39,005 nt of DNA from IMG/VR virus record IMGVR_UViG_2521172734_000002. The stretch is one strand, 5' to 3'. The position numbers and the translations under genes are program-made. This document shows positions 1,137 to 35,841 of the stretch, piece after piece. The DNA comes from a virus. Its lineage: Duplodnaviria; Heunggongvirae; Uroviricota; Caudoviricetes. The notes below the pieces were generated by a model that was given only the letters and a program-made list of their open reading frames with translations, did no database searches and was not told the origin of the DNA. Every line of letters begins with the position of its first letter. Within the stretch, counting starts at the first letter, position 1.

Positions 1137-2813
1137 CTAAGCAACATGCAGTTCATCGTTGGCGGAAGTTGCTGCTTTGCGCTCTTGCTCAATCGCCAGT
1201 GACTCTCTATATTCTTTCGCTTCCGCAAACATTGTCCATTGTGCGTTGATGTTCATATCTTCAATAACAGACTTAATTTCTTTAATATTTACGTTGAAAA
1301 ACTCTTTTCGTGAGTTAATTTTATTGACCTGTTTTTCGTTGAAGACTTTATGCAGATGATTTTCTAATGATGGTGCATCATCACTATAAATCATCGCATG
1401 AACATCGAATGAAAAAGGAACACTAGCATCACCGAGTTCACGAACACGATCAAGTGGTTCAAGGCGGCGTGTCATTCCAATTTTATATACATCTTCGCCA
1501 AATGAGCCAATATTACTAATTATATAAACGTGGCCTGATCTAGTTTGTTGAGCCATAGAAATAGCTCGTTGGTTTTTAGCTTCAGCTTCTTCATATTTTA
1601 ACTGTAGTTCAGCTATTTTTTGCTCTAAAGCTAAGCGTTGTTCTTCATTTGCAAGCATAAGCTCTTTTGTTGCTTTATTTATAGCTTGCTGAATAGCTTT
1701 CTCTTCTTTTTCAGCTTCTTTTATCGCTTTTTCATACTCCCTACGAGCTCTTTCCTCTTCACGAAGTTGTTCTTTAATCCTTCTTTGCTCTTCTTTTTCT
1801 TCGAGCATAATTTCATTAACTGCAACTCCCCATTTTAGCTCGTTGAGTCGAGCTTGAAGATAGATGTCACTTATTTTTGCGGACCTAAAGGCAGAACCAT
1901 TGTAATTTACAAGTTGAAACGCATCTTTTATCTCTTGGGAAAGTTTTCCAAAATTGTTGTGTTTGACTTTTGATAAAATACTGTCAACTCTTCCATTGAA
2001 GGCATCTAAAACAAAGTTGATAGCAGTATTACGCCTGTTTTGTTCAACATAATCACACGAAGCAGCTTTATTAGTTTTTATTAATGATTTTGTTAACTCC
2101 CTGGCTTTTTGTAATTCCTTACCTGCATCTGTAAACTCATAATTTTCTGCCAATTCATCGAGAACGCTACGGTTAGGGATGATCCATTCATCACCATAAC
2201 CTTCAATTTTATTTTTCATTGATTTGGCAACTGCTTCATATTTTTCTGCAAACTCTTTAGCTTCATATGCTGAACCAGCAATCTCTTTTGCTCTTTCTTC
2301 TGCATCGGAAATAATTTTCACTGCATTGTCATTAGCATTTGAGATCAGCTCATTTGCTTTACTATTGGCATTATCAAGACGTTCTTTAGCTTTCAGGCGT
2401 GCATCGCGAGCGTCTTTAGTAATTGCTATAGCTTCGCTATTAGCGTTGCTTATTTTTATCTGAGCTTGATAATTTGCTTCGTTTACTGTCTTAGCAGCCT
2501 TTATTTGGGCTTCTTCTATTTTTTGCCTGGCTATTGAGTCTGCATTTTTTATCTTATTCTCTGCTTCCATCACTGCGCTGTGCAATTCTACGTATTGCCA
2601 TAATGGCGCAGCTCGTCCTTCAAGCTCTGATAGATCTCGTACAGTCTGTGCTAATTCTTCTTGATTTTCTTTCAGTTGGTTGGAAAGGGCTATGTTGTTA
2701 GCTGTCAAGGTATTTATAGCCGCTTTATGTTTTTTGCTTTGCTTAAATAATATTACAGCTAGAATGGGGGCGAGAAATGCTAATAAGAATATAACGATGG
2801 AAAATGAATTCAT
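1137..2813 (-). CDS. Membrane-anchored coiled-coil protein with C-terminal T5orf172 / GIY-YIG-like domain (DUF4041-T5orf172-like architecture); candidate lysogen-expressed defence protein
   Basis: 558-aa ORF; N-terminal hydrophobic helix FSIVIFLLAFLAPILAVILF; long Ala/Lys/Glu-rich region with NANS/NAND repeats; C-terminal GHVYIISN...VYKIGMT...PFSFDVH module; AGGA RBS 7-8 nt upstream; visibly AT-rich; sits between cI and int on the same strand. Confidence 0.8.
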   Translation of the reverse strand: MNSFSIVIFLLAFLAPILAVILFKQSKKHKAAINTLTANNIALSNQLKENQEELAQTVRDLSELEGRAAPLWQYVELHSAVMEAENKIKNADSIARQKIEEAQIKAAKTVNEANYQAQIKISNANSEAIAITKDARDARLKAKERLDNANSKANELISNANDNAVKIISDAEERAKEIAGSAYEAKEFAEKYEAVAKSMKNKIEGYGDEWIIPNRSVLDELAENYEFTDAGKELQKARELTKSLIKTNKAASCDYVEQNRRNTAINFVLDAFNGRVDSILSKVKHNNFGKLSQEIKDAFQLVNYNGSAFRSAKISDIYLQARLNELKWGVAVNEIMLEEKEEQRRIKEQLREEERARREYEKAIKEAEKEEKAIQQAINKATKELMLANEEQRLALEQKIAELQLKYEEAEAKNQRAISMAQQTRSGHVYIISNIGSFGEDVYKIGMTRRLEPLDRVRELGDASVPFSFDVHAMIYSDDAPSLENHLHKVFNEKQVNKINSRKEFFNVNIKEIKSVIEDMNINAQWTMFAEAKEYRESLAIEQERKAATSANDELHVA

Positions 2814-2833
2814 TTTTAAATCCTTTTACTATA

Positions 2834-10253: not shown

Positions 10254-10823
10254 ATGATGGGGCCAATCAAAATTTACTCTTGCGGTACATATCATCCTTG
10301 GCGATATCGAGGAGAGCGAAATCCTCGTTCCGGGGATAGACTTTCAAAGGCAATGATGGATTTGAAGGACGCTTCAAATTCCGGGTATGCAAAGGCTGTT
10401 AATATTTTTACCCAACTTTTAACTTCTAGCCTCCAAAGCTATGTGATTGGTAGGGTTGCTTTTACCGACGTGCCCTTTGAGATAACAATTGTTCCTTCTC
10501 ATGCTGAGGGAAAAGTATCTCAAGCTTTAATAAAAATAGCGCAAGATATTGCGAAAAAATTTCCTAATGCTGTATATAACCAATCATTACAGAGAAAAAC
10601 AACAGTAGTGAGTGCTCATAAGGGGGGCGGAGATCGTTCTGTCGAACATCATATGTCAACAATCGGAGTTACATCCAATGTGGCTGATAAGGTTATTCTC
10701 CTTATTGATGATGTTACTACAACTGGGGGGAGTATGACGGCGTGCTATTATCTGTTAAGATATGCAGGCGCAAAGACAATATTGCCACTGGCGTTACTAG
10801 AAACAGCTAATTATGAGGAGTGA
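10254..10823 (+). CDS. Phosphoribosyltransferase (PRTase)-domain protein, ShosT-like candidate toxin/effector
   Basis: 189-aa ORF with type-I PRTase PRPP-binding motif VILLIDDVTTTGGSM; stop overlaps the start of the DprA-like gene; AT-rich. Confidence 0.65.
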   Translation: MMGPIKIYSCGTYHPWRYRGERNPRSGDRLSKAMMDLKDASNSGYAKAVNIFTQLLTSSLQSYVIGRVAFTDVPFEITIVPSHAEGKVSQALIKIAQDIAKKFPNAVYNQSLQRKTTVVSAHKGGGDRSVEHHMSTIGVTSNVADKVILLIDDVTTTGGSMTACYYLLRYAGAKTILPLALLETANYEE

Positions 10824-11790
10824 AATAATGCACCCTTCCCAATTCAAAATATTGTTAGGTCTATCGGTACAGGTTGATAGACTTGCATCAGAACAAGGGT
10901 TGCTTAAATTATTTAACGATATTCCATTCCATATTATTTCCGATGAATATGAATTGGTTGAGTGTGTTAATTCAGCCGGGATTTTAAAATCCACCTTTTC
11001 TATAGCGTCATTGCATAATGCTGAAGACTATTTGAGCAAGCATTTGTCATTGGGGATTGTTCCAATTCCTTTTGGAGATGCTAAATACCCTATTTGTTTA
11101 GCAATTACGCCAAATCCCCCAGCAATGTTATATTTGAAGGGGGACGTAAATATTCTTAGTGAGATGCCAGGAGTTGCAATTGTTGGTTCTCGTGAAGTTT
11201 CTATGGCAGGGGAAGAAATTACGAAGAGAATTACCACGAAAATCTGTGAAAGAGGTGTGGTGATTGTAAGCGGCCTAGCTATTGGTACTGATACAAATGC
11301 ACACAAGGCAACTCTTAAGGCAGGTGCTAAAACAATTGCTGTATTAGCTCATGGTTTAGAGAGCGCTAAGCCTAAACAAAATGCTAGATTAGCAAATGAA
11401 ATTTTATCTAACGGTGGGGCTTGGATTTCTGAGTATCCTGTAGGGAGGCCTGCATTCAAGCAGTCATTTGTGCAACGCAACAGAATCCAGGTAGGTTTAT
11501 CAGCAGTTTCGATACTAATCGAAGCAGCAAAAAATAGTGGGACAATGACGCAGGCGGATTTTGCTATTAAAGCGGCAAGACCTATTTTTGCTGTTGTACC
11601 GCATAAGGCTGATAATCCACTGGGACTTAATTGCGAAGGAACTCAACAACTTGTTGATAATGAATTGGCTAATCCCTTGCGCACTAGTCAAGACTATGAT
11701 TCACTGATGAATGTAATATCTGAGTCAATAAGCAAAATTAAGATAAATTCTGATATTTATAGATCTAATATGAGTCACTTTCTGATTTAG
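10813..11790 (+). CDS. DprA/Smf-like (SLOG/Rossmann) protein, ShosA-like candidate partner
   Basis: DprA-type motif VGSREVS...VIVSGLAIGTDTNAHKATLKAGAKTIAVLAHGLE; likely true start ATG 10828 after AGGAG (10817-10821). Confidence 0.7.
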   Translation: MRSEIMHPSQFKILLGLSVQVDRLASEQGLLKLFNDIPFHIISDEYELVECVNSAGILKSTFSIASLHNAEDYLSKHLSLGIVPIPFGDAKYPICLAITPNPPAMLYLKGDVNILSEMPGVAIVGSREVSMAGEEITKRITTKICERGVVIVSGLAIGTDTNAHKATLKAGAKTIAVLAHGLESAKPKQNARLANEILSNGGAWISEYPVGRPAFKQSFVQRNRIQVGLSAVSILIEAAKNSGTMTQADFAIKAARPIFAVVPHKADNPLGLNCEGTQQLVDNELANPLRTSQDYDSLMNVISESISKIKINSDIYRSNMSHFLI

Positions 11791-20207: not shown

Positions 20208-20591
20208 ATGCAACAGTTTATTCAGATTTTACAAACTATTTCCACATGGCCGTTTGCTTTCATCTTTGGTCTATGTATTTTATATCGTCCTATAAATATG
20301 TTGTTTAGTAGATTTATTGAAAGTAATACGGCAAAAGCTAAATTAGGATTTGTGGAGCTAGAGATTGGAGAGCTAGCTAAAAAAGGAAGAGAGGCTGTTG
20401 ATAATTTTAATGAGTTAACCATTGTTATGGCTAAGACTCGGTTGTTGGAGTTAGAGGTTACTAAAGAGAACTTTTCTGCAGCGTTTTCATCTAATCAGCA
20501 AGTTAAATTAAATGCATTGATGTTGGAGCTAGAAAAAAAGATTCATTATCTTGAGGAAGTAAGAGATGAAGGTTTATCCATTAAAAAATAA
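20208..20591 (+). CDS. Small membrane-anchored coiled-coil protein (cargo cassette gene 1)
   Basis: 127-aa ORF; N-terminal hydrophobic segment (ISTWPFAFIFGLCILY) then charged heptad-like region; AT-rich; no clear SD, so the start is uncertain. Confidence 0.45.
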   Translation: MQQFIQILQTISTWPFAFIFGLCILYRPINMLFSRFIESNTAKAKLGFVELEIGELAKKGREAVDNFNELTIVMAKTRLLELEVTKENFSAAFSSNQQVKLNALMLELEKKIHYLEEVRDEGLSIKK

Positions 20592-21780
20592 AATGGTTAT
20601 ATCTTTTTCATCCTCAGTCCATATGGCTATAATTGTGTATATCCAAGATGGATTGGTCTTATCAGATATTATCCATGAAAATAACGTGCAATCAGGTGAG
20701 ATTGATTTTGGTATACCACTTTTTGATGCAAGTGAAACAAGTGAGAAAATTGTTGATCACCTCCTGACGTTGATAGGGGATACAAAAAATTTACATATTG
20801 ATTTATTAAGGAGATACTATGATGCGCAATTAGAGCTTTATAACTCAGTTATCTCTAGTAAATTCTTAAATGAACTTTTTATCGATTGTCCTAATTTAGC
20901 GTGGGGAATTGTTTTAGATAATTATTACGGTGTTAATTTTCATACTGTTGAGTATTTGGCAAGAATAAAAAGAAAACGATTAATTTCTATTTTGGCTGGT
21001 ACTGCTGCTGAGGAAAAGATAGTAAATATACTTAAGAAGACTTCATTGCTGAATGGAAGAAAGGATGAGTTTCTCTGGCTATCACGTTGTTTAAGTAGTG
21101 ATGCTATTATTGAATCGTATAAGCATAAAAAGAATATATCTATACAGGAGCTTTATTTAGCATATAGTTATCCAATTTTTTGTGGTGCTAATTTATTGGA
21201 AAGTTTGTGCGAAGAAAAAAAAGATACTCTTCAAGATTATAAATACGGAATGATATCTCTTGAAAAGTTGGTACGGGATAGTATACGAATAGGCGAAAAC
21301 ATAGGTATAAAATCTGCCAAGACAATGGTTATGAATTGTAATAGTAGGGAAGATGTGAAAAACCTTCATGATAAGTGGTCATTACGGTTGAGAAATTCGA
21401 CGACCTATCTTGAAAAGGATATTTTCTTGGATGAGCCAAGCATACAGGTTATTGACGGAATAGAGTATATCAACTCAATAAACAAGTTGATTAAAGAGGG
21501 TAAAGAAATGAAGCACTGCTTGGCTTCATATAAAGAAAAAGTTATCAATGGTGAAAGTTATATATACAAGGTTTTAACTCGGTGGGGAGAGCGAGTAACA
21601 GTCGAGTTGGCATTGTCAAATGGTATCTATTTGCTAAAGCAAGCAAAAGGTATTTGTAATTCTCAACCTAGTGATCTCGCTCTTAATTATATTCATACAT
21701 GGTTGGAAAACGAAAACAAATACCTGAAGGAGGCTTTAGAGTTGTATGCTGGCGACTTTAAAAGAGCTATGAGTGCTTAG
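20566..21780 (+). CDS. 404-aa protein of unknown function with conserved-looking EGKEMKHCLASY motif (cargo cassette gene 2; possibly PcfJ-like)
   Basis: Long ORF with GAGGAAG RBS; overlaps gene 1 by 26 nt; AT-rich; inserted between S and V where P2 has no gene. Confidence 0.6.
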   Translation: MKVYPLKNKMVISFSSSVHMAIIVYIQDGLVLSDIIHENNVQSGEIDFGIPLFDASETSEKIVDHLLTLIGDTKNLHIDLLRRYYDAQLELYNSVISSKFLNELFIDCPNLAWGIVLDNYYGVNFHTVEYLARIKRKRLISILAGTAAEEKIVNILKKTSLLNGRKDEFLWLSRCLSSDAIIESYKHKKNISIQELYLAYSYPIFCGANLLESLCEEKKDTLQDYKYGMISLEKLVRDSIRIGENIGIKSAKTMVMNCNSREDVKNLHDKWSLRLRNSTTYLEKDIFLDEPSIQVIDGIEYINSINKLIKEGKEMKHCLASYKEKVINGESYIYKVLTRWGERVTVELALSNGIYLLKQAKGICNSQPSDLALNYIHTWLENENKYLKEALELYAGDFKRAMSA

Positions 21781-23684: not shown

Positions 23685-24282
23685 TCTGCTGCCACCGGGT
23701 TCAACTTCACTGGAGCGCCGACTGGCGCAAACCTGCAGCGGGATTACTGATCTGCAGGTGCCGCTGCGTGACTTGTGGAATCCGGCAACCTGTCCGGTCA
23801 GTTTCCTGCCTTATCTCGCCTGGGCGTTCTCTGTGGATCGCTGGGACGAGAGCTGGACAGAAAGCGTCAAGCGCCAGGTGGTGAAGGATGCTTTTTATAT
23901 TCATCAGCATAAAGGGACCACCAGTGCCGTGCGGCGGGTGGTGGAGCCGTTCGGCTTTCTGATCCGCATTATTGAGTGGTGGCATACCGGAGAAACACCG
24001 GGCACGTTTCGTCTGGATATCGGCGTGCAGGACCAGGGCATCACTGAAGATACCTATCTGGAACTTGAGCGACTGATAAGCGATGCCAAACCATGTAGCC
24101 GCCACATGATCGGCATGTCCATCAACCTGCAGACCAGCGGTCCATATTGGGTGGGGGCTGCAAGCTATCTTGGCGAAGAAATCACGATCTATCCGTATAT
24201 CAACGAAACAATTATTTCTGGCGGCACCGCGCATGAAGGCGGGGCGGTCCATGTTATTGACACAATGAGAGTGAATCCATGA
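23677..24282 (+). CDS. I: Baseplate/tail protein I (P2 gpI-like)
   Basis: 201-aa ORF overlapping the J stop and the H start. Confidence 0.85.
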   Translation: MNSLLPPGSTSLERRLAQTCSGITDLQVPLRDLWNPATCPVSFLPYLAWAFSVDRWDESWTESVKRQVVKDAFYIHQHKGTTSAVRRVVEPFGFLIRIIEWWHTGETPGTFRLDIGVQDQGITEDTYLELERLISDAKPCSRHMIGMSINLQTSGPYWVGAASYLGEEITIYPYINETIISGGTAHEGGAVHVIDTMRVNP

Positions 24283-24668
24283 GCACAAAATTTTATACCC
24301 TGCTGACGGATATTGGCGCGGCGAAACTTGCCAGCGCCGCCGCGCTCGGTGTGCCTTTAAAAATTCCCCATATGGCGGTAGGCGATGGCGGCGGAACATT
24401 GCCAACGCCGGACGCAAAGCAGACAGCATTAGTAAATGAGAAACGCCGGGCTGCGCTGAATATGCTGTACATCGACCCGCAGAACAGCAGCCAGATTATT
24501 GCTGAACAGGTGATCCCTGAAAACGAGGGCGGTTGGTGGATACGTGAAGTGGGCCTGTTTGATGAGTCCGGGGCATTGATTGCCGTGGGCAACTGCCCGG
24601 AAAGCTATAAGCCGCAACTGGCTGAAGGCAGCGGGCGCACCCAGACCGTGCGCATGGTGCTGTAGTGG

Positions 24669-25985
<1,317 letters not shown>

Positions 25986-26576
25986 TAAATACGTGGATGA
26001 TGAAGTCCTGGAATTAAAGCTGTATGTGGATGACCAGATGAGAAACCACATTGCCGCACAAGATCCTCATTCCCAGTATGCGCAGAAACATAATCCGACA
26101 TTTACCGGAGAACCAAAAGCGCCGACGCCTGCAGCAGGAAATAACACCACGCGGATTGCGACCACTGAGTTTGTTCAGGCCGCTATTACTGCTCTGATTA
26201 ACGGTGCGCCAGCCACGCTGGACACACTGAAAGAAATTGCCGCAGCCATTAACAATGATCCGAAATTCAGTACCACCATTAACAATGCGCTGGCACTGAA
26301 AGCGCCGCTGTCGAGTCCGGCACTCACCGGAACGCCAACCGCACCTACTGCGGCACAGTCGGTCAACAATACACAAATTGCCACCACGGCATTTGTGAAA
26401 TCGGCGATTGCGGCAATGGTGGGTTCTGCACCTGCGGCACTGGATACACTGAACGAACTGGCGGCGGCGCTGGGGAATGACCCGAACTTTGCCACGACAA
26501 TGCTTAATGCACTGGCAGGTAAACAACCGCTGGACAATACGCTGACTAATTTGAGTGGAAAGGATGTAACTGGTCT

Positions 26577-26602
26577 TCTCACATACCTTGGTTTGGGAGA
26601 AG
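26577..26602. repeat. Putative invertase crossover site (left) inside H
   Basis: Contains TTGGTTTGGGAGAAG (26588-26602), a perfect inverted copy of 28213-28227; resembles the AAACC-AA-GGTTT core of gix/hix sites. Confidence 0.45.
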
Positions 26603-26917
26603 CCAGATATGTCATTCAGCGAGGAGCTAATGCCAATGGTGCATGGATACGCTGGTCAGATGGTGCAATAGAAGTATTTGGAACCGGTGGATCTAATGAT
26701 AATGGACTGGCTAAAGTTGTTTACCCAATTGCACTGCCTAAACTTTCACGTTTTATCAGTATCGCGGAAAGAATAAGAACGGATTACGAGAGCACACCTA
26801 ATAATGTTCACGTTTCAATGATCGTGGATGATCAAGTAACAAATACCGGCTTTTATGCCCGCTGCCAGATGTACGACGGCAGACCATCATCAAATGCTTT
26901 TTCCTGGAGGGTTTATT

Positions 26918-27115
26918 GTGCGCCTGTTTAATCCAGTTACTTTGACTGAAGTAATCCCCGGTCTTCATGACGTGACCGGGGCTATTGAATTACCGGAGGA
27001 CAACTGGTTTTTTACTATGACAGAAATTCCTCAGGGCATGGAGCTAACAATTAATGAGAAAGGCGAACCAATACTAATTGAGGTTAATCAGTCTCAGGGA
27101 ATACAGGCCAAATAA
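26918..27115 (+). CDS. Possible short tail-fibre assembly/chaperone ORF downstream of H
   Basis: GTG-initiated ORF of about 66 aa right after the fibre variable end, convergent with the alternative assembly gene; identity uncertain. Confidence 0.3.
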   Translation: MRLFNPVTLTEVIPGLHDVTGAIELPEDNWFFTMTEIPQGMELTINEKGEPILIEVNQSQGIQAK

Positions 27116-27692
27116 TATCAGGCGCGGTGCTGGTATCTGTTGCCGTCACTGCGTCAATGTAATTCAGCACCGTGTTAAGTCGGTTGGTTTCTGCCTGCGT
27201 CAGACTCCGTCCGGCCTGTAATTTCAGTTGAATCAGATTGATGGAAGCCATTGCAGTATCCATCAGCGACTGGCGCTGTGCTTCTGCTGCATCTACTGCG
27301 GCGCTATGCTGTGCCTCGGTATCCGTCACCCATTTCTCACCATTCCATTTATCGTATGGCGTTAACGGGGCGATAGTGGTTGTATTATCAGGGTAATCCC
27401 CCGGAGCTGTGATTTCTTTTGATTCTCCCGTTTCGGTGTTATAGACAACTTCACCGCGATGGTCTGGCACATATTCCCATGAGTTAAAATCTGCCGAACG
27501 GCAGATTGCATAACCAGCCTTATGTGTGCCAGGAGCATCTAAACAGGAATATGCGGGGATACCGACACCCACAGCAAGATATTCAATTGATGCAGAAATA
27601 TACTCCCGTGTCTCACTGTCATAGTTATAAACGGTAATCTCTCCTGCCTTTGTGGCAATAAATTTATTATTTAAGATGGCGTTATACATCAT
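27084..27692 (-). CDS. Tail-fibre assembly protein (alternative cassette, Tfa/U'-like)
   Basis: 202-aa ORF; inverted relative to H; overlaps the alternative fibre end; N-terminus of the lambda Tfa type (..ITVYNYDSETREYI..). Confidence 0.65.
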   Translation of the reverse strand: MMYNAILNNKFIATKAGEITVYNYDSETREYISASIEYLAVGVGIPAYSCLDAPGTHKAGYAICRSADFNSWEYVPDHRGEVVYNTETGESKEITAPGDYPDNTTTIAPLTPYDKWNGEKWVTDTEAQHSAAVDAAEAQRQSLMDTAMASINLIQLKLQAGRSLTQAETNRLNTVLNYIDAVTATDTSTAPDIIWPVFPETD

Positions 27693-28267
27693 GCAGCCCT
27701 CACAATGTAATTAAATGAAATATTACGTGGGCGTGTCTCTGCTGCACCGACAATACTGGTACTCAACCCCGTTGCCGTTCGTTTGTTATTTTTATTTCCT
27801 TCAATCAAACAGTTGTAATCATCATTACCAATTAACGAATTGGTGGCATCAATACTGTCCGGGGACAAGGCATTAGTTGTGGAACTTAAAGTCAGCATCT
27901 CGTCTGAACTTGGAAGATTTTTTAATGGTGTTTCATTGCGTGAAATACCCGCGTAAAAAAAGGACTCATGCCTGTGAGCTTCAAAAGAGTCATCCTGAAG
28001 ACTTAGCAAGGCTCGCCCCGCATCCACTCCACGTCCATCATCCCAGCCACGAATAAATTCACCGCGTAAATCAGGCAATTTATTGGTCGGGTAAGCCTTT
28101 GCCAGTTCCGGGTATTCTTCAGCAGAAAAAGCCGCACCATTGCATTTCAGCCAGCCTGTTGGCGGAGTGGCTGAAGGCCACGGAACAGGCACCCCAACCG
28201 GTAATGCAGAGCCTTCTCCCAAACCAACGTTTAAGAAAATGCAGCGATTACGACTAACTGGCATCAT
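27689..28267 (-). CDS. Alternative tail-fibre C-terminal (receptor-binding) segment Sv'
   Basis: In-frame ORF on the opposite strand spanning the right crossover site; would fuse to the H constant part after inversion; the functional segment probably starts at the crossover site, not at the ORF-track Met. Confidence 0.55.
   Translation of the reverse strand: MMPVSRNRCIFLNVGLGEGSALPVGVPVPWPSATPPTGWLKCNGAAFSAEEYPELAKAYPTNKLPDLRGEFIRGWDDGRGVDAGRALLSLQDDSFEAHRHESFFYAGISRNETPLKNLPSSDEMLTLSSTTNALSPDSIDATNSLIGNDDYNCLIEGNKNNKRTATGLSTSIVGAAETRPRNISFNYIVRAA
28211..28236. repeat. Putative invertase crossover site (right)
   Basis: TTCTCCCAAACC-AA-CGTTTAAGAAAA, an imperfect dyad of the hix/gix type; its core CTTCTCCCAAACCAA (28213-28227) is the inverted copy of 26588-26602; lies just upstream of the invertase gene. 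Confidence 0.45.
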
Positions 28268-28294
28268 CCCCGATTTTTATTCAAGGAGATGATC

Positions 28295-28861
28295 ATGCTT
28301 ATTGGTTATGTACGCGTGTCAACAAATGACCAGAACACCGATTTGCAACGTAATGCACTGAATTGCGCGGGATGTGAGCGGATTTTTGAGGACAAAATCA
28401 GTGGCACTAAGTCCGACAGACCGGGGCTTAAAAAACTGCTCAGGACACTATCGGCAGGAGACACTCTGGTTGTCTGGAAGCTGGACAGGTTGGGGCGCAG
28501 TATGCGGCATCTTGTTACGCTGATAGAAGAGTTGCGCCAGCGTGGCGTGAATTTCCGAAGCCTGACTGACAGTATTGATACCAGTACCCCAATGGGCCGT
28601 TTCTTTTTTCATGTTATGGGTGCCCTGGCTGAAATGGAACGCGAACTGATAGTTGAACGTACCAGGGCAGGGCTGGCTGCAGCTCGTGCCAAAGGCAGAG
28701 TAGGTGGACGCCGTCCTAAGTTGACCACCGAACAGTGGGCACAGATTGGGCGTTTACTTGAGGCCGGAGAATCAAGACAGCGTATTGCACTGATTTTTGA
28801 TGTAGGCGTTTCTACTATTTATAGAAAATTTCCGGCAAATAAGAGCAATGAATCTCCCTGA
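28295..28861 (+). CDS. Serine DNA invertase (Gin/Cin/Pin/Hin family)
   Basis: MLIGYVRVSTNDQNTDLQRNAL...LVVWKLDRLGRSM...GRFFFHVMGALAEMERELI, near-collinear with Gin; AAGGAG RBS 6 nt before ATG 28295. Confidence 0.9.
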   Translation: MLIGYVRVSTNDQNTDLQRNALNCAGCERIFEDKISGTKSDRPGLKKLLRTLSAGDTLVVWKLDRLGRSMRHLVTLIEELRQRGVNFRSLTDSIDTSTPMGRFFFHVMGALAEMERELIVERTRAGLAAARAKGRVGGRRPKLTTEQWAQIGRLLEAGESRQRIALIFDVGVSTIYRKFPANKSNESP

Positions 28862-28909
28862 ATCAGCATTATTTTTATTATCCCTGCAAGCAGACAAATA
28901 CCGTCATTT

Positions 28910-28927
28910 TGTGTGAATAACGGTACA
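28910..28927 (+). promoter_or_regulatory. Late promoter activator site (TGT-N12-ACA) for the FI operon
   Basis: TGTgtgaataacggtACA about 75-95 bp upstream of the FI start. Confidence 0.45.
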
Positions 28928-29003
28928 ACTGCGCTTAGCTGTTTGTCAGGCACAATCACTTCAACATAGGGCGAAGCCTAATCCAATCAGGAGGTTCGCC
29001 ACT

Positions 29004-30176
29004 ATGGCTCAGGATTACCACCACGGGGTGCGCGTTGTTGAAGTCAACGAAGGCACCCGATCCATTACCACGGTGAGCACCGCCATCGTGGGTATGGTCT
29101 GCACGGGCGATGATGCCGATGCAAAAATGTTTCCTCTTAATAAACCCGTGCTGATCACTGATGTGCTGACTGCCAGCGGTAAAGCGGGTGAGTCCGGTAC
29201 TCTGGCCCGTTCGCTGGATGCCATCGCTGATCAGGCAAAACCCGTGACCGTTGTTGTGCGTGTGCCGCAGGGTGAAACGGAAGAAGAAACCACGACCAAT
29301 ATCATCGGCGCTGTGACTGCTGAAGGTAAAAAAACAGGCATGAAAGCCCTGCTATCTGCCCAGTCACAGCTCGGCGTTAAACCGCGCATTCTCGGCGTGC
29401 CAGGTCACGATAACAAAGCCGTTGCGACTGAGTTGCTGAGCGTGGCGCAAAGCCTGCGTGGGTTTGCTTACCTGTCAGCGTATGGCTGCAAGACGGTACA
29501 GGAGGCGATCACTTACCGTGAAAACTTCAGCCAGCGCGAAGGAATGCTGATCTGGCCCGACTTTACTGGCTGGGACACGGTGCTGAATGCCGAAGCAACG
29601 GCATATGCCACCGCCCGTGCGCTTGGTCTGCGTGCCAAAATTGATGAGCAGACCGGGTGGCACAAAAGCCTGTCCAACGTGGGCGTGAACGGTGTCACCG
29701 GAATTTCTGCAGATGTGTTCTGGGATCTGCAGGACCCGGCAACCGATGCAGGTCTGCTGAACCAGAACGACGTCACCACGCTTGTGCGTAAAGACGGTTT
29801 CCGCTTCTGGGGTTCCCGCTGCCTGAGTGATGACCCGCTCTTTGCCTTCGAAAACTACACCCGCACGGCGCAGGTGCTGACGGACACAATGGCAGAAGCG
29901 CACATGTGGGCAGTGGATAAACCGCTTAACCCGTCGCTGGCCCGCGATATTATCGAAGGTATCCGCGCCAAAATGCGCAACCTGGTCAGTCAGGGCTATC
30001 TCATTGGTGGTGATTGCTGGCTGGATGAGTCGGTGAACGACAAAGACACGCTGAAAGCCGGAAAACTCACCATCGACTATGACTACACGCCAGTGCCGCC
30101 ACTTGAAAATCTGATGCTGCGCCAGCGCATCACCGATCAGTACCTGGTGAATTTTGCCAGCCAGGTCAGCGCGTAA
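29004..30176 (+). CDS. FI: Tail sheath protein (P2 gpFI-like)
   Basis: 390-aa ORF with GGAGG RBS; size and position typical. Confidence 0.9.
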
Positions 30177-30185
30177 GGGGACAAC

Positions 30186-30701
30186 ATGGCTTTACCACGC
30201 AAATTAAAACATCTGAACCTGTTTAACGACGGGAACAACTGGCAGGGGATCGTAGAGTCGCTGACGCTGCCGAAATTCACCCGCAAATATGAGAAGTATC
30301 GCGGCGGCGGAATGCCGGGTGCAGTGGATGTGGATCTGGGGCTTGATGACAGTGCTCTGGACACAGAATTTTCCATTGGTGGTACTGAACTGCTGCTGTT
30401 TAAACAGATGGGCAAAGCCACGGTGGATGGCATCCAGTTGCGCTTTACCGGCTCTATCCAGCGTGATGATACCGGGGAAGTACAGGCCGTGGAGCTTGTG
30501 GTGCGTGGACGTCACAAAGAAGTGGACTCCGGCGAGTGGAAGACGGGCGAAAGCAACACCACCAAAGTGACCAGTACCAACAGTTACGCGAAGCTGACTA
30601 TCAATGGTGAGGTGCTCTATGAAGTGGACCTTATCAACATGGTGGAAATTGTGGACGGTGTGGACCTGATGGAAGCGCACCGCAACGCCCTCGGCCTCTG
30701 A
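30186..30701 (+). CDS. FII: Tail tube protein (P2 gpFII-like)
   Basis: 171-aa ORF directly after the sheath gene. Confidence 0.9.
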   Translation: MALPRKLKHLNLFNDGNNWQGIVESLTLPKFTRKYEKYRGGGMPGAVDVDLGLDDSALDTEFSIGGTELLLFKQMGKATVDGIQLRFTGSIQRDDTGEVQAVELVVRGRHKEVDSGEWKTGESNTTKVTSTNSYAKLTINGEVLYEVDLINMVEIVDGVDLMEAHRNALGL

Positions 30702-30755
30702 TGTATCTGAACGGCGCGGAATGCCGCGCCAGAACCCAATTTACAGGACAGAAAA

Positions 30756-31058
30756 ATGAGTGATAAGCAGACTGAAAAGACCATTCAACTGGATACCCCT
30801 ATCAAGCGCGGTAAAACGGAAATCACCGAAATTGTGCTGCGTAAACCGCAGTCTGGTGCGCTGCGCGGTACACGCCTGCAGGCCATTATGGATATGGATG
30901 TGAACGCGATGATTACCGTGATCCCCCGTATCTCCAGCCCGGCACTGACCGCACAGGAAATTGCAGAGATGGACCCGGCAGATCTCACTGCCATGTCGGT
31001 TGAGGTTGTCACTTTTTTGTTGAAGAAGTCGGTGCTTGCCGGTTTACCGACAGCCTGA
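30756..31058 (+). CDS. E: Tail assembly chaperone E
   Basis: 100-aa ORF before the tape-measure gene; contains slippery T TTT TTG at 31013-31019. Confidence 0.8.
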   Translation: MSDKQTEKTIQLDTPIKRGKTEITEIVLRKPQSGALRGTRLQAIMDMDVNAMITVIPRISSPALTAQEIAEMDPADLTAMSVEVVTFLLKKSVLAGLPTA

Positions 31059-31192
31059 CGGTTGACGATCTGGTGGCAGATATCGCCACCATTTTTCACT
31101 GGCCGCCATCCGTTACTGACGTTATGCCGCTGACCGAAGTGCTGGAATGGCGGTATAAAGCGATTCAGAGAAGCGGGGCCAACGATGAGTGA
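30756..31192 (+). CDS. E+E' extended chaperone made by programmed -1 frameshift
   Basis: Slippery heptamer TTTTTTG at 31013-31019; the -1 frame stays open to TGA at 31190-31192, overlapping the T start. Confidence 0.5.
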
Positions 31193-34100
31193 TAACAACC
31201 TGCGCCTGCAGGTCATTCTTAATGCGGTTGACAAACTCACCCGCCCATTCCGTGCTGCACAGGCCAGTTCGAAAGAGCTGGCTGGCGCAATCAGAAACTC
31301 CCGTGACGCATTAAAGCAACTCAATCAGGCGGGTAACAGCCTGGAAAAATTTCGCAAGCTGCAGGCCGATAACAAGAAGTTAGGCGACAGGCTGAACTAT
31401 GCCAGACAGAAGGCTAATTTGCTTAGCTCTGAGCTGGAGGCGATGGAACAACCATCACAACGGCACCTTGTGGCTTTAGGTCGGCAAACGCTGGCAGTCC
31501 AACGCCTGGAAGAACAACAAAAATATTTGCAGAAGCAAACGGCGCTTGTGCGTGCAGAACTGTACCGGGCGGGAATTTCTGCGAAAGATGATGCGGGAGC
31601 AACTGCCCGTTTAGCCCGTGAAACATCACGTTATAACCAGGAACTGTCGAAACAGGAGGCGCGGCTGAAGCGACTGGGGGAAGCTCAGCGCAGGATGAAT
31701 GCGGCGCGTGCCAGTTATGCCCGTTCGCTGGAGGTGCGCGATCGTATTGCAGGAGCCGGAGCCACTACCACGGCTGCAGGGTTGGCAATGGGGACGCCAG
31801 TGATGGCGGCAGTAAAAAGCTATACCAGCATAGAAGATGCCATGAAAGGTGTGGCAAAGCAGGTCAATGGTCTGCGTGACGATAATGGCAACCGCACTGC
31901 ACGTTTTTATGAAATGCAGGATGCCATCAAGGCTGCCAGCGAACAGTTGCCGATGGAAAACGGTGCTGTGGACTTCGCTGCACTGGTTGAAGGTGGTGCG
32001 CGCATGAACGTCGCAAACCCTGACGACAGCTGGGAAGACCAGAAACGTGATCTGCTGGCCTTCGCCAGCACAGCAGCAAAGGCGGCAACAGCCTTTGAGC
32101 TGCCAGCGGATGAACTGTCAGAAAGTCTGGGGAAAATCGCCCAGCTCTACAAAATCCCTACCCGCAATATTGAACAGCTCGGTGATGCGCTGAACTATCT
32201 GGATGATAACGCCATGTCGAAAGGGGCAGACATTATTGATGTCATGCAACGTCTGGGCGGTGTGGCGGACCGTCTGGATTATCGTAAAGCGGCGGCGCTG
32301 GGTTCCACCTTTCTGACACTGGGCGCTGCGCCGGAGGTTGCAGCCAGTGCAGCAAACGCGATGGTGCGTGAATTGTCCATTGCCACCATGCAGAGCAAGA
32401 GTTTCTTTGAAGGGATGAATCTGCTGAAACTCAATCCTGAAGTGATTGAAAAGCAGATGACGAAGGATGCGATGGGAACCATCCAGCGCGTGCTGGAGAA
32501 GGTGAACGCACTGCCGCAGGACAAGCGTCTGTCTGCCATGACCATGTTGTTTGGTAAAGAGTTTGGCGATGACGCGGCGAAACTGGCAAACAACCTGCCG
32601 GAACTGCAGCGCCAGTTAAAGCTGACAGCGGGCAATGATGCGCTCGGTTCCATGCAGAAAGAATCCGACATCAACAAGGACTCACTTTCTGCTCAGTGGT
32701 TGCTGGTCAAAACCGGAGCGCAGAACACCTTCAGCAGCCTGGGCGAAACGCTGCGCCAGCCGCTGATGGATATTCTGTACACGGTGAAAAGCGTCACGGG
32801 GGCGTTGCGTCGCTGGGTGGAAGCTAACCCGGAACTGACGGGCACACTGATGAAAGCGGCGGCTGTTGTGGCTGCGGTTACCGTGGGCCTCGGCACCTTA
32901 GCGGTGGTGTTAGCTGCAGTGCTGGGGCCGCTGGCAGTGATCCGTCTGGGGTTCTCTGTGCTGGGTATCAAAACGTTACCTTCCGTTACGGCAGCAGTAA
33001 CTCGAACCAGCAGCGCGTTGTCCTGGCTGGCTGGCGCACCACTGGCACTGCTGCGACGCGGGCTTGCTTCATCGGGCAACGCCGCAGGTTTACTTACTGC
33101 GCCATTGTCGTCTTTGCGCCGCACGGCATCACTGACGGGAAATGTCCTGAAAACTGTAGCAGGTGCGCCGGTTGCACTTTTGCGGTCTGGATTATCCGGT
33201 TTACGTGCGGTTGCTGTGATGTTTATGAATCCACTGGCAGCACTACGCGGTGGACTGGCCGCCGCAGGCACGGTGCTGCGAGTACTGGCATCTGGTCCAC
33301 TGGCGATGCTGCGCGTTGCCCTGTATGCCGTATCTGGTCTGTTAGGTGCTCTGCTCAGTCCGATAGGTCTTGTGGTTACTGCACTGGCGGGCGTGGCGCT
33401 GGTTGTCTGGAAATACTGGCAACCCATCACCGCATTTCTTGGTGGCGTGGTGGAAGGATTCAAAGCGGCGGCAGGTCCCGTCAGTGCAGCATTCGAACCG
33501 CTTAAGCCCGTGTTCCAGTGGATTGGCGACAAAGTACAGGCGTTGTGGGGCTGGTTTACTGATCTGCTGACGCCCGTTAAGTCGACCTCTGCCGAACTGC
33601 AGAGTGCAGCGGCAATGGGGCGGCGATTCGGGGAGGCACTGGCGGAAGGGCTGAATATGGTCATGCATCCGCTGGACTCCCTGAAATCCGGCGTTTCCTG
33701 GTTGCTGGAGAAGCTCGGCATTGTCAGTAAAGAGGCCGCAAAGGCAAAACTGCCGGAAAGCGTGACGCGTCAGCAACCTGCGACGGTGAATGCAGACGGT
33801 AAAGTGATGATGCCATCGGGTGGTTTTCCATCATGGGGATATGGCTTTGCGGGGATGTATGACAGCGGCGGGTATATCCCGCGCGGGCAGTTTGGCATCG
33901 TCGGTGAAAACGGGCCGGAAATTGTTAACGGCCCGGCAAATGTGACCAGCCGGAGAAATACAGCTGCACTGGCTGCCGTTGTTGCCGGTATGATGGGCGT
34001 TGCTGCCGCGCCAGCAGAGCTTCCACCGTTGCACCCTTTGGCACTTCCCGCGAAAGGTGGAGAAGCAATTGTGAGTCGCGCAGCCACTGTGCCGCCCGTT

Positions 34101-34262
34101 TACAGGATTGAGGCACCGACGCAGATCATCATCCAGACGCAGCCAGGACAAAGTGCGCAGGATATTGCGCGGGAGGTGGCCCGCCAGCTTGATGAACGTG
34201 AACGCAGGCTGAAGGCAAAAGCCAGGAGTAACTACAGCGATCAGGGGGGATACGACGCATGA
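31185..34262 (+). CDS. T: Tail tape-measure protein (P2 gpT-like)
   Basis: 1025-aa ORF with coiled-coil N-terminus and Ala/Gly/Leu-rich repeats (..LLRRGLASSGNAAGLLTAPLSSLRR..). Confidence 0.9.
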   Translation: MSDNNLRLQVILNAVDKLTRPFRAAQASSKELAGAIRNSRDALKQLNQAGNSLEKFRKLQADNKKLGDRLNYARQKANLLSSELEAMEQPSQRHLVALGRQTLAVQRLEEQQKYLQKQTALVRAELYRAGISAKDDAGATARLARETSRYNQELSKQEARLKRLGEAQRRMNAARASYARSLEVRDRIAGAGATTTAAGLAMGTPVMAAVKSYTSIEDAMKGVAKQVNGLRDDNGNRTARFYEMQDAIKAASEQLPMENGAVDFAALVEGGARMNVANPDDSWEDQKRDLLAFASTAAKAATAFELPADELSESLGKIAQLYKIPTRNIEQLGDALNYLDDNAMSKGADIIDVMQRLGGVADRLDYRKAAALGSTFLTLGAAPEVAASAANAMVRELSIATMQSKSFFEGMNLLKLNPEVIEKQMTKDAMGTIQRVLEKVNALPQDKRLSAMTMLFGKEFGDDAAKLANNLPELQRQLKLTAGNDALGSMQKESDINKDSLSAQWLLVKTGAQNTFSSLGETLRQPLMDILYTVKSVTGALRRWVEANPELTGTLMKAAAVVAAVTVGLGTLAVVLAAVLGPLAVIRLGFSVLGIKTLPSVTAAVTRTSSALSWLAGAPLALLRRGLASSGNAAGLLTAPLSSLRRTASLTGNVLKTVAGAPVALLRSGLSGLRAVAVMFMNPLAALRGGLAAAGTVLRVLASGPLAMLRVALYAVSGLLGALLSPIGLVVTALAGVALVVWKYWQPITAFLGGVVEGFKAAAGPVSAAFEPLKPVFQWIGDKVQALWGWFTDLLTPVKSTSAELQSAAAMGRRFGEALAEGLNMVMHPLDSLKSGVSWLLEKLGIVSKEAAKAKLPESVTRQQPATVNADGKVMMPSGGFPSWGYGFAGMYDSGGYIPRGQFGIVGENGPEIVNGPANVTSRRNTAALAAVVAGMMGVAAAPAELPPLHPLALPAKGGEAIVSRAATVPPVYRIEAPTQIIIQTQPGQSAQDIAREVARQLDERERRLKAKARSNYSDQGGYDA

Positions 34263-34744
34263 TGATGGTGCTGGGATTGTACGTGTTTATGCTGCGCACC
34301 GTGCCGTATCAGGAGCTGCAGTATCAACGCAGCTGGCGACATGCGGCAAACAGCCGGGTAAACCGACGTCCGTCCACGCAGTTTCTGGGACCGGACAACG
34401 ACATGCTGACGCTTTCCGGTGTTCTTATGCCGGAGATAACAGGTGGCAGGCTGTCGTTGCTGGCACTGGAGCAGATGGCAGAACAGGGGAAAGCATGGCC
34501 CCTGATTGAAGGCAGCGGCACGATTTTTGGCATGTATGTGATTGAGGGACTGAATCAGACTAAAACGGAGTTTTTCCGCGACGGTATGCCGCGCCGGATT
34601 GAGTTCACCCTGTCGCTCAAACGGGTGGATGAATCCCTGTCCGATATGTTCGGTGATCTCAGTGCGCAGCTGAATAATCTGCAGGGAACGGCAACATCTG
34701 CCTTAAGCGATATCAGTAAAACGGTGGGAGGGCTTCTGTCGTGA
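34259..34744 (+). CDS. U: Tail protein U (P2 gpU-like)
   Basis: 161-aa ORF overlapping the T stop. Confidence 0.85.
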   Translation: MMMVLGLYVFMLRTVPYQELQYQRSWRHAANSRVNRRPSTQFLGPDNDMLTLSGVLMPEITGGRLSLLALEQMAEQGKAWPLIEGSGTIFGMYVIEGLNQTKTEFFRDGMPRRIEFTLSLKRVDESLSDMFGDLSAQLNNLQGTATSALSDISKTVGGLLS

Positions 34745-35841
34745 ATTTCAGCTCTGAACTGCTTAACAAAGGCAACAAAACTCCGGCATTCAGCATCAGT
34801 ATTGAAGGCAGGGATATCACCACTGTGCTGGACAACCGCCTGATGAGTCTGACGCTGACGGATAACCGGGGCTTTGAAGCAGACCAGCTTGATCTGGAAC
34901 TGGACGACGCCGACGGAAAAATCGTGCTGCCGCGTCGTGGTGCGGTTATTACGCTGGCGCTGGGCTGGAAAGGGCAGCCGCTTTTCCCGAAAGGGGCATT
35001 CACGGTGGACGAGATTGAACACACTGGCGCACCGGACCGCCTGACTATCCGGGCGCGAAGTGCTGATTTTCGTGAAACGCTGAATACCCGCCGCGAAAAA
35101 TCGTGGCACAAGACCACTGTCGGGGAAGTGGTGAAGGAAATAGCTGCGCGGCACAAACTGAAGATGGCACTGGGTAAAGACCTGTCTGATAAACCCGTGG
35201 ATCATATAGACCAGACTAATGAGAGTGACGGCAGTTTTCTGATGCGGCTGGCTCGCCAGTACGGTGCCATTGCATCGGTGAAAAATAGCAATCTGTTATT
35301 CATCCGGCAGGGACAGGGCAAAAGCGCCAGCGGTAAACCTCTGCCGGTGATCACTATCACACGCAAGGACGGCGACAGTCACCGCTTTACCCTGGCGGAT
35401 CGCGGAGCTTACACGGGCGTCATTGCCAGCTGGTTGCATACCCGTGAACCCGCGAAGAAAGAAAGCACTACAGTGAAGCGTAAGCGCAGGACCAAGAAGC
35501 AGAAGAAAGAGCCGGAAGCGAAGCAGGGCGATTACCTGGTGGGGACGGATGAAAACGTGCTGGTACTTAATCGCACTTATGCCAACCGGAGCAACGCCGA
35601 ACGAGCGGCAAAAATGCAGTGGGAACGCCTGCAACGCGGTGTTGCGTCATTCTCGCTACAACTGGCGGAAGGGCGGGCAGATCTTTACACGGAAATACCT
35701 GTAAAAGTCAGTGGTTTTAAACAGCCGATAGATGATGCGGAATGGACCATTACCACCCTGACGCATACTGTCAGCCCGGATAACGGTTTTACTACCAGTC
35801 TGGAGCTTGAAGTGAGGATTGATGATTTCGAAATGGAATGA
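34741..35841 (+). CDS. D: Tail protein D (P2 gpD-like)
   Basis: 366-aa ORF overlapping the U stop; last gene of the late tail operon. Confidence 0.85.
   Translation: MNFSSELLNKGNKTPAFSISIEGRDITTVLDNRLMSLTLTDNRGFEADQLDLELDDADGKIVLPRRGAVITLALGWKGQPLFPKGAFTVDEIEHTGAPDRLTIRARSADFRETLNTRREKSWHKTTVGEVVKEIAARHKLKMALGKDLSDKPVDHIDQTNESDGSFLMRLARQYGAIASVKNSNLLFIRQGQGKSASGKPLPVITITRKDGDSHRFTLADRGAYTGVIASWLHTREPAKKESTTVKRKRRTKKQKKEPEAKQGDYLVGTDENVLVLNRTYANRSNAERAAKMQWERLQRGVASFSLQLAEGRADLYTEIPVKVSGFKQPIDDAEWTITTLTHTVSPDNGFTTSLELEVRIDDFEME

Follow-up and report, generated by a model that had tools for sequence, protein, structure and literature searches.

Introduction

Several phages and prophages exchange the tips of their tail fibres by inverting a DNA segment with a site-specific invertase, among them the E. 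coli K-12 element e14 (P segment, invertase gene pinE, cassettes stfP-tfaP and stfE-tfaE), Mu (G segment, Gin) and P1 (C segment, Cin). The e14 genes stand in the order fibre constant part, tip, chaperone, convergent chaperone', tip' and invertase; in Mu, inversion swaps the fibre/chaperone pairs S-U and S'-U', and the invertase gene lies just outside the segment. Inversion has been demonstrated experimentally both in e14, where it is documented in culture, and in P2-like prophages of EPEC, where sequencing and PCR revealed both orientations side by side (PMC4272514). The same article cites the P2-type tailocin carotovoricin Er for a change of host range by inversion (PMC4272514). The recombination sites of these invertases are 26 bp in size (PMC3798978). 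For the tail fibre assembly (Tfa) proteins, a modular model in which the N-domain binds the fibre and the C-terminal helices bring about trimerisation has been put forward (PMC9608196, citing North et al. 2019).

Here we describe a locus in a viral DNA stretch of 39,005 nt (the whole of the analysed DNA, hereafter the window) in which the tail-fibre gene H of a P2-like prophage very probably carries a site-specific inversion switch of the Pin/Gin family. As a switch it belongs to a long-known kind and adds nothing new on DNA invertase biology. Mild novelty lies only in one of its two tips, whose helper appears to be the usual fibre-assembly chaperone reduced to a conserved miniature of 65 residues.

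Results

Crossover sites and the invertible segment

A perfect 15-bp inverted repeat (TTGGTTTGGGAGAAG) embedded in imperfect dyads, which an earlier note on this DNA had described, lies at 26588-26602 and 28213-28227. No third copy occurs in the 39,005-nt window, which leaves two sites only. Taken by itself such a repeat is not significant in 39 kb, where about 0.7 pairs are expected by chance (N^2/2/4^15), with about 0.07 within 2 kb. It is nevertheless non-random, because the sites around it closely match the e14 pix sites, it lies in frame in both fibre ends, an invertase gene adjoins it and natural breakpoints fall within it. The left, pixL-like site (26576-26601) reads TTCTCACATACC TT GGTTTGGGAGAA, with its TT core at 26588-26589, and the right, pixR-like site (28214-28239) reads TTCTCCCAAACC AA CGTTTAAGAAAA, with its AA core at 28226-28227. 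Each of these 26-bp sites is an imperfect dyad of 12-2-12 layout (8-10/12 dyad matches per site); the two are mutually inverted, have the same 2-bp core (TT/AA), share the 15-bp core perfectly and bracket a segment of 1,640 bp. Aligned with known crossover sites, a comparison that the earlier note had recommended, the left site is identical to e14 pixL at 22/26 positions and the right site to e14 pixR at 25/26.

Domain content and reading frames agree with the earlier description of a ~1.6-kb segment carrying two fibre ends and assembly genes. The constant part of H comprises 354 residues and is joined to either of two tips by inversion; its shaft, the rest of the constant part (25918-26601, + strand), ends in ..LTYLGLGE, encoded by the left crossover site. 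In the window orientation it continues in frame into the (+) tip (26602-26931, + strand), 109 aa long and probably a divergent Gp53-like C-terminal domain. The match of this tip to Pfam PF21882 (E 0.002, 19.1 bits, profile positions 2-80 of 84) lies below the cutoff of 24.9; 11/12 of its homologues match the same family (best E 5e-5), and the tip itself matches phrog_2557 at E 3e-15. Its dN/dS of 0.15-0.22 indicates purifying selection. A homologue search with the (+) tip returned close relatives only, all annotated 'hypothetical', a sequence search of the PDB gave no match, and the AlphaFold2 single-sequence model (pLDDT 41.9) was too poor for fold comparison.

The (-) tip (27689-28213, - strand), silent in the window orientation, is StfE-like, 174 aa long and contains a collar domain (Pfam Collar PF07484, E 2e-15; phrog_523, E 1e-69; 57% identical to e14 stfE), whose free-standing ORF extends to an ATG at 28267. 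It is accompanied by a TfaE-like tail fibre assembly protein of 202 aa (27084-27692, - strand), with matches to Pfam Caudo_TAP (E 1e-31) and phrog_105 (E 4e-97) and 86% identity to e14 TfaE. Both H fusions are open, at 463 aa with the (+) tip and, after in-silico inversion, at 528 aa with the (-) tip; the 528-aa fusion is annotated in NCTC8623.

The invertase gene

The gene beside the right site (28295-28861, + strand) encodes a serine DNA invertase of the Pin/Gin/Cin/Hin family, 188 aa long, with Resolvase (E 2e-53) and HTH_7 (E 1e-15) Pfam domains and a match to phrog_125 'DNA invertase' at E 9e-101. Residues 1-184 align end to end with the Gin crystal structures 3uj3/4m6f (E 8e-93), and the catalytic Ser9, in GYVRVSTNDQ, is conserved in the Gin alignment. 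The earlier label 'Gin/Cin-like' named the right family and can be refined: the protein is closer to Pin of e14 (PinE, 85% identity) than to Gin of Mu (73%), and the sites are pix-like.

Invertases of this family depend on host Fis and negative supercoiling and rely on a cis-acting, Fis-dependent recombinational enhancer with two Fis sites, expected in the first ~130 bp of the invertase gene, in its 5' part, some 100 bp away from the closer of the two crossover sites. The first 260 bp of the gene align without gaps with gin and pinE. A strict Fis-motif scan matched gin at gene positions 41 and 101, and gave zero matches in the window and zero in pinE. The QxGRLL motif of helix 1 is aligned between the invertase and Gin, and reads QIGRLL in the invertase; we take its residues to correspond to Gln151, Arg154 and Leu155 of Hin. 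These three Hin residues are reported to contact Fis and are described as unique to Fis-dependent invertases (PMC3798978). A promoter/terminator scan around the invertase gene yielded nothing above shuffle expectation.

Inversion in public genomes

Both orientations of the segment occur in public genomes. The computed flipped sequence (2,501 bp) is present at 100% identity in STEC309 and FDAARGOS_1254, and the window orientation at 100% identity in WAT and O111:H21 15A; among complete genomes matching at a coverage of at least 80%, the counts are 28 for the window orientation and 39 for the flipped one. In the NCTC8623 record the two ends overlap untrimmed; they differ by indels only and carry the segment in opposite orientations, with breakpoints inside the 15-bp repeat. 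Both orientations are thereby present in this single culture. Breakpoints inside this repeat also separate E. coli W from its derivative HBUT-L, whose flanks are 100% identical and whose segments, a 2.8-kb version carrying the same insertion sequence (IS) as H here, are oppositely oriented. In addition, the exact 65-aa protein was found only on contigs shorter than 2 kb in 1,077/2,928 collection blocks, and a Pantoea contig of 1,679 bp terminates exactly in the 15-bp repeat.

Natural inversion takes place at exactly these repeats. In the window's own strain it probably does so as well, given the identical sequence in other genomes. The two orientations that the earlier note had suggested looking for are thus seen indirectly, in the NCTC8623 overlap, the E. 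coli W derivatives and contigs ending at the repeat; more generally, flipped identical copies, untrimmed overlaps and repeat-terminated contigs in public assemblies alone suffice to demonstrate inversion.

An insertion sequence in H

H is disrupted by an IS, as the earlier note had stated. The 5' fragment of H (24279-24665, + strand; 128 codons plus a stop from the IS end) encodes the baseplate-attachment domain (Pfam Phage_tail_fib PF12571, E 9e-55, profile 1-128/150) and is collinear with the intact H of E. coli WAT. The element (24661-25918, - strand) is an IS3-family IS of 1,258 bp with TG..CA ends, terminal inverted repeats (TGTAGTGG) and transposase ORFs at 25535-25882 and 24669-25415 (both - strand); its annotations are no more specific than 'IS3 family'. 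It is flanked by a target duplication, TGC, at 24658-24660 and 25919-25921, and its ends are ambiguous by 2 bp because five bases (TGCTG) are common to both junctions. With the IS excised, H is restored to 463 aa, identical to WAT WP_000104744.1. The prophages of WAT and 15A lack the IS and are 99.9-100% identical apart from it, the prophage of E. coli W has an identical copy (100% over 1257 bp), and the particular H/IS junction of the window was found in no complete E. coli genome. In related genomes the prophage is located between rcdA and ybjL.

The IS would take the N-terminal 128 residues, the baseplate-binding part, off the downstream product, and the earlier phrase 'uncoupled from expression' is best read as a prediction about function. 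Because H is split at codon 128, neither orientation is expected to give a functional fibre here; the window's prophage has probably lost fibre function, which is the practical point for its genome.

Given this damage, the switch might also be a fossil in the window's genome, with all features present and inversion ceased, whether because the invertase is silent or because the IS acts indirectly. A simple scan, which found no sigma-70-like promoter upstream of the invertase gene, would fit such a history. However, the left site is 1.9 kb downstream of the IS, which leaves sites and invertase untouched, window positions 25919-34900 are 100% identical to WAT, the 2.5-kb switch region matches STEC309 and FDAARGOS_1254 perfectly once flipped, and inversion in E. 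coli W continued despite an IS inside the segment itself. We consider a fossil switch very improbable.

The 65-aa ORF of the (+) cassette

The (+) tip is followed by a 65-aa ORF, here called mini-Tfa (26918-27115, + strand), which has a GTG start, a GGAGGG Shine-Dalgarno sequence at 26906-26911 and an overlap of 14 nt with the H stop. The asymmetry that the earlier note had pointed out (about 66 aa against 202 aa) is real, at 65 aa against 202 aa. The ORF matches phrog_5400 at E 1e-25 and carries the annotation 'hypothetical' wherever it occurs (PHROG 5400, unknown function).

Comparison with assembly proteins, which the earlier note had proposed, showed it to match the N-terminal domain found in short proteins of the Caudo_TAP family. 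[quoted passage not shown] The homologous stretch covers the N-terminal ~55 residues. The C-terminal Caudo_TAP helical domain (..W..YR..L.RVD....P...WP..P motif) is absent, as the ORF ends at ~65 residues, and the overlap of the convergent tfa gene with the 3' end of the ORF leaves no space for a C-terminal remnant. The ORF has no Pfam match, even at E 10, and hhalign of its family against the 202-aa Tfa gave no significant similarity. It is not to be classed as a Caudo_TAP member; judged by its sequence, it is a homologue of the N-terminal module only.

Other candidate relatives were rejected. A 131-aa E. soli Tfa shared only a 19-column GK..V..NGxPVL match with the ORF, which at a probability of 16% is not significant. 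P0152, P0159 and P0170-P0173 are Spiralin/DUF285/SpaA repeat proteins, whose matches are spurious because their scores added up over many weak repeats. A sequence search of the PDB with the ORF gave no match, and its AlphaFold2 single-sequence model (pLDDT 50.8) was unusable.

The earlier note had offered two readings of the short ORF, a degenerate gene or a different small chaperone. If the (+) cassette were degenerate, the ORF would be a truncated Tfa stump beside a (+) tip unable to assemble, leaving the switch as an ON/OFF toggle for a single functional fibre. The absence of the C-terminal helices present in its full-length relatives (P0167, JK004 gene_1) is compatible with such decay, as are the lack of a Pfam match and the occurrence of the ORF in only 2 of 50,697 phage genome records. 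A decaying gene is nevertheless hard to reconcile with its 123 homologues in Enterobacterales, 57-73 aa in length, among which the short length is kept at 60-100% identity in E. coli, Enterobacter, Salmonella, Citrobacter, Hafnia, Pantoea, Erwinia and Xenorhabdus. The dN/dS of the ORF is 0.09-0.19 (with saturated dS), and its strong Shine-Dalgarno sequence and overlap with the H stop also speak against decay. Moreover, it stands directly after a (+) tip homologue in 9/9 distant loci, always with the same tip family, which is likewise under purifying selection, and 28/67 near-complete matches in complete genomes are in the (+) orientation. Degeneracy thus appears improbable: of the two earlier readings, the small chaperone is supported, by a conserved gene under purifying selection that always accompanies its tip, and the degenerate gene is not.

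Discussion

By analogy with characterised invertases, invertase dimers would bind both inverted 26-bp sites, and the sites would then come together in a synapse with a Fis-bound enhancer within the invertase gene itself. Cleavage would occur at the central TT/AA dinucleotide in both sites, followed by a 180-degree rotation of one tetramer half and religation. The outcome is inversion of the 1.64-kb segment, with the 3' end of H replaced in frame. In the (+) state, as in the window, H(1-354) plus the 109-aa Gp53-like tip gives a protein of 463 aa, translationally coupled to the 65-aa protein; in the (-) state, H(1-354) plus the 174-aa collar-domain tip gives one of 528 aa, followed by the 202-aa TfaE-like assembly protein. 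Both tip/helper pairs would be driven by the upstream P2 late operon, so that a population of lysogens would release particles with two receptor specificities. In the window copy the segment would still be flippable, with no baseplate-attached fibre either way, leaving a switch that is probably mechanically intact and phenotypically silent.

Homology and synteny point to the 65-aa protein as a tail-fibre assembly protein that naturally consists of the N-domain only and would bind its co-evolving tip without the conserved C-terminal trimerising helices. We propose, tentatively and with a little less than even confidence, that it is either a minimised assembly protein of this kind, with the helices dispensable for its tip, or a permanent tip subunit that aids receptor choice. 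It is rather unlikely that the protein is no assembly factor at all, serving instead as a virion-retained tip accessory (a co-receptor-binding or capping subunit) or in an unrelated role. The Tfa proteins of Mu and Ur-lambda do remain attached to the finished fibre, where they help to recognise the receptor (PMC9608196), and the part kept in the 65-aa protein is precisely the fibre-binding domain. Yet a tip accessory is compatible with the chaperone reading and overlaps it, while an unrelated role has no evidence in its favour and the strict synteny of the ORF with the tip points to a tip-linked one.

A testable role emerges for the hypothetical protein encoded by the 65-aa ORF once it is read as an assembly protein's fibre-binding module. 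If it is indeed an N-domain-only assembly protein, the conserved C-terminal trimerising helices would be dispensable for this Gp53-like tip family. The (+) cassette may also offer a very small natural tip-plus-helper unit for engineering, as retargeting of P2-type phages and tailocins needs the right helper for each tip.

Compared with the Caudo_TAP proteins (lambda Tfa, Mu U, P2 G), in which a variable N-terminal domain pairs with the tip encoded just upstream, the 65-aa ORF has the same position directly after the fibre tip but is without the helical domain that defines the family and falls below any Pfam threshold. The G segment of Mu and the C segment of P1 are operated by enzymes of the same family, and the locus resembles Mu in swapping fibre/chaperone pairs and in placing the invertase gene just outside the segment. 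In contrast, the repeats of Mu are 34-bp perfect ones with a TC/GA core (here 15-bp perfect, TT core), its segment measures 3 kb and carries two full-length chaperones (175 and 177 aa), and its tips are unrelated to those described here (~24% identity over short stretches). By description, the P2-like prophages of EPEC E2348/69 and the tailocin carotovoricin Er share the P2-type late operon and an invertase adjoining H, although three repeats and four variants are described for one EPEC locus, against two sites only in the present one. The P segment of e14 is similar in invertase (85% identical), in sites (22/26 and 25/26 identical) with their TT core and LGLGE coding junction, in gene order and in an orthologous (-) cassette (TfaE 86%, stfE 57% identical). 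The host element differs, being a complete P2-like prophage here and a lambdoid remnant in e14. So does the (+) cassette: e14 pairs a Gp53-like StfP tip with TfaP, a Caudo_TAP protein of 137 aa, whereas the (+) tip of this locus is 22% identical to StfP and is paired with a 65-aa protein that appears to consist of the N-domain only.

Crossover sites and invertase

An inverted-repeat search of the window returned arms at 26576-26602 and 28213-28239, 81% complementary and 1,610 nt apart. Within them lies the perfect 15-bp repeat (TTGGTTTGGGAGAAG, 26588-26602 and 28213-28227) that the earlier note had described. By our own arithmetic, about 0.7 such pairs are expected anywhere in 39 kb (about 0.07 within 2 kb), so that a perfect 15-bp inverted repeat would not be remarkable by itself. 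No third copy was found in the window, with up to 3 mismatches tolerated. The repeat is embedded in 26-bp units of two 12-bp half-sites around a shared 2-bp core, namely TTCTCACATACC-TT-GGTTTGGGAGAA on the left and, as reverse complement, TTTTCTTAAACG-TT-GGTTTGGGAGAA on the right. The proposed kinship with known invertase sites is borne out by alignment: the pix sites of the e14 element, extracted from Escherichia coli K-12, are 22/26 and 25/26 identical to the window sites, and the gix sites of phage Mu have the same 12-2-12 layout.

The adjacent ORF (28295-28861) encodes Resolvase and HTH_7 domains, matches PHROG 125 (“DNA invertase”; E 9e-101), and aligns over residues 1-184 with crystallised Gin (3uj3, 4m6f; E 8e-93), catalytic serine included. 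It had been called Gin-type; the family assignment stands, but since its identity is 85% to PinE and 73% to Gin, “Pin-type” is, judged by sequence identity, the more exact label within what is one family. Members are defined by sites of 26 bp, a remote enhancer bound by Fis and strand exchange via subunit rotation, and certain helix-1 residues are unique to the Fis-dependent invertases (PMC3798978). In our own alignment these residues appear to be conserved in the window invertase as QIGRLL. A strict Fis motif found sites in gin and none in pinE or the window. The window system shows the family’s testable features, with the enhancer as a predicted element.

Alternative fibre ends

The constant part of the tail-fibre gene H ends in ..LTYLGLGE, encoded by the crossover site. 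With its insertion sequence removed, H in the window orientation encodes 463 aa, identical to the protein of E. coli WAT, and in the inverted state the frame stays open to give 528 aa, as annotated in NCTC8623. The segment holds two alternative C-terminal ends, as had been proposed. The (-) cassette consists of a collar-domain tip (PF07484) and a 202-aa Caudo_TAP (tail fibre assembly, Tfa) protein, to which stfE and TfaE of e14 are 57 and 86% identical, respectively. The (+) cassette consists of a 109-aa tip followed by a 65-aa ORF (26918-27115, plus strand). This tip matches Gp53-like_C weakly across the whole profile (E 0.002), and 11 of 12 homologues match the profile too (best E 5e-5).

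An identical tip and 65-aa ORF/Tfa and collar-tip cassette with invertase was also observed in a Mu-like prophage beside smpB (L017, 5634-7527) with Mu Gp45-48 baseplate genes, making the invertible module common to P2-like and Mu-like backbones. Enterobacter soli (L007, 3666-4943) has a smaller segment, with 15-bp repeats AAACCTTGGTTTGGG and 1,248 nt between arms, in which a different cassette, a Gp53-like_C tip (E 4e-15) with a 131-aa Caudo_TAP protein, faces the tip and small-ORF cassette, indicating that cassettes recombine independently.

Evidence for inversion

For comparison with other genomes, a flipped version was made in silico by reverse-complementing 26588-28227 and leaving the flanks as they were. 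Over 2,501 bp, the window orientation is present at 100% identity in WAT and O111:H21 strain 15A, and the flipped version in STEC309 and FDAARGOS_1254. At a coverage of at least 80%, the complete E. coli genomes include 28 records in the window orientation and 39 in the flipped orientation.

Three further observations speak to inversion over short time scales. In the circular NCTC8623 sequence this prophage region recurs at either end of the record, and the copies differ solely by indels (0 mismatches and 10 gap openings over ~6 kb), as is typical when a long-read overlap has been left untrimmed; one copy has the 1,643-bp segment in the opposite orientation to the other, and the orientation changes within the 15-bp repeat. 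Between E. coli W and HBUT-L the flanks are 100% identical, and the segment, grown to 2.8 kb through an IS, is flipped at these repeats. Finally, in 1,077 of 2,928 collection blocks the exact 65-aa protein occurs only on contigs shorter than 2 kb. In several database entries the longest contig is 1,640 bp, equal in length to 26588-28227, and a 1,679-bp Pantoea wallisii contig has a 15-bp inverted repeat of its own at its two ends; short-read assemblers would be expected to break at the repeats when reads hold both junctions. Coexisting orientations have been shown by sequencing and PCR in e14 and EPEC P2-like prophages (PMC4272514).

Two “complete” E. coli records, NZ_LR134234.1 (ends L025/L026) and CP065152.1 (ends L017/L018), contain ~20-kb untrimmed end overlaps, so that the prophage region is present twice in each; NCTC8623 is the case among them with copies in opposite orientation.

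Prophage setting and the insertion in H

A complete P2-like prophage makes up the window; it is collinear with the one between rcdA and ybjL in WAT (99.9-100% identity), save for a single insertion. Around the switch the order is V, W, J, I, H, the invertible segment, the invertase, sheath FI, and tube FII onward. Upstream of the switch, as previously noted, H is disrupted: a 1,258-bp IS3-family element (24661-25918; TG..CA ends, TGC duplicated) interrupts it after codon 128. The N-terminal PF12571 domain (profile 1-128 of 150) is encoded by the upstream fragment, and downstream translation products, e.g., from an ATG formed at 25918, would lack it. None of the collection’s complete E. coli genomes has the H-IS junction. 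Because the crossover sites and invertase are intact despite the IS, the segment should still be able to invert, and inverting would make no difference to particles.

The same IS (100% over 1,257 bp) occurs at different points in the fibre regions of two different P2-like prophages, at H codon 128 in the window (24661-25918) and at the H stop/start of the 65-aa ORF in E. coli W (L003, 3545-4801), and beside the tail gene gpU in other genomes.

Elsewhere in the window, the integrase and CI repressor have as their neighbour a 558-aa DUF4041 protein (1143-2816, minus strand), which matches PD-Lambda-1, a protein of anti-phage defence (PADLOC E 5e-120). A phosphoribosyltransferase and DprA-like pair (10254-10820 and 10828-11787, plus strand), flanked by the replication genes and the portal gene, corresponds to ShosT/ShosA of the Shosta defence system (PADLOC E 3e-18 and 1e-69). 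Tail gene S and baseplate gene V are separated by a hypothetical protein (20208-20591, plus strand) and a PcfJ-domain protein (20566-21780, plus strand), for which PADLOC gave no match. Related prophages carry other cargo there, including a TIR_2 protein (L015, 10898-11713), a 254-aa ORF (L022) and two ORFs (L020), which suggests a variable cargo hotspot.

The small ORF of the (+) cassette

The 65-aa ORF starts with GTG behind a GGAGGG Shine-Dalgarno sequence and shares its first 14 nt with the end of H. It falls in PHROG 5400, of unknown function in that database, and has 123 detectable homologues (57-73 aa) across many Enterobacterales genera, all annotated as hypothetical. In 9/9 loci from other species a homologue of the (+) tip (37-63% identity) directly precedes the homologue of the ORF, and pairwise dN/dS is 0.09-0.19 among pairs with measurable dS.

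An exhaustive phmmer search, which turned up longer relatives, together with the small-ORF family profile, revealed N-terminal homology to fibre assembly proteins, the comparison that the earlier note had advised. P0167 (131 aa), 45% identical to the 65-aa ORF over the first 50 residues, is a genuine Caudo_TAP protein (E 3e-20) with the typical C-terminus ...WKKFRILVTRVD...IEWPKQPE. In gene_1 of Cronobacter phage JK004, a 128-aa Caudo_TAP protein directly behind a related Gp53-like tip ORF, the profile also matches residues 1-57 (46.6 bits). In the published model of Tfa proteins (PMC9608196), contact with the fibre tip is made by a variable N-domain, and trimerisation by conserved C-terminal helices; the 65-aa protein would then correspond to the tip-binding module alone. 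It might act as a chaperone or stay on the fibre.

JK004 (93.8 kb; L030, 1487-3887) itself encodes a 417-aa fibre with a Gp53-like end and, downstream, a free-standing 119-aa tip ORF starting LGE.., then the 128-aa Tfa. This pair resembles a reserve or alternative cassette and may belong to a further inversion system.

Comparison with known systems

The description and interpretation of this switch made from the sequence alone are correct. As far as the literature we searched shows, the N-domain-only helper is the sole element not already described, a modest variant whose function is putative. The switch follows the same logic as the G/Gin system of Mu and is the same system as Pin of e14, but in a P2-like setting.
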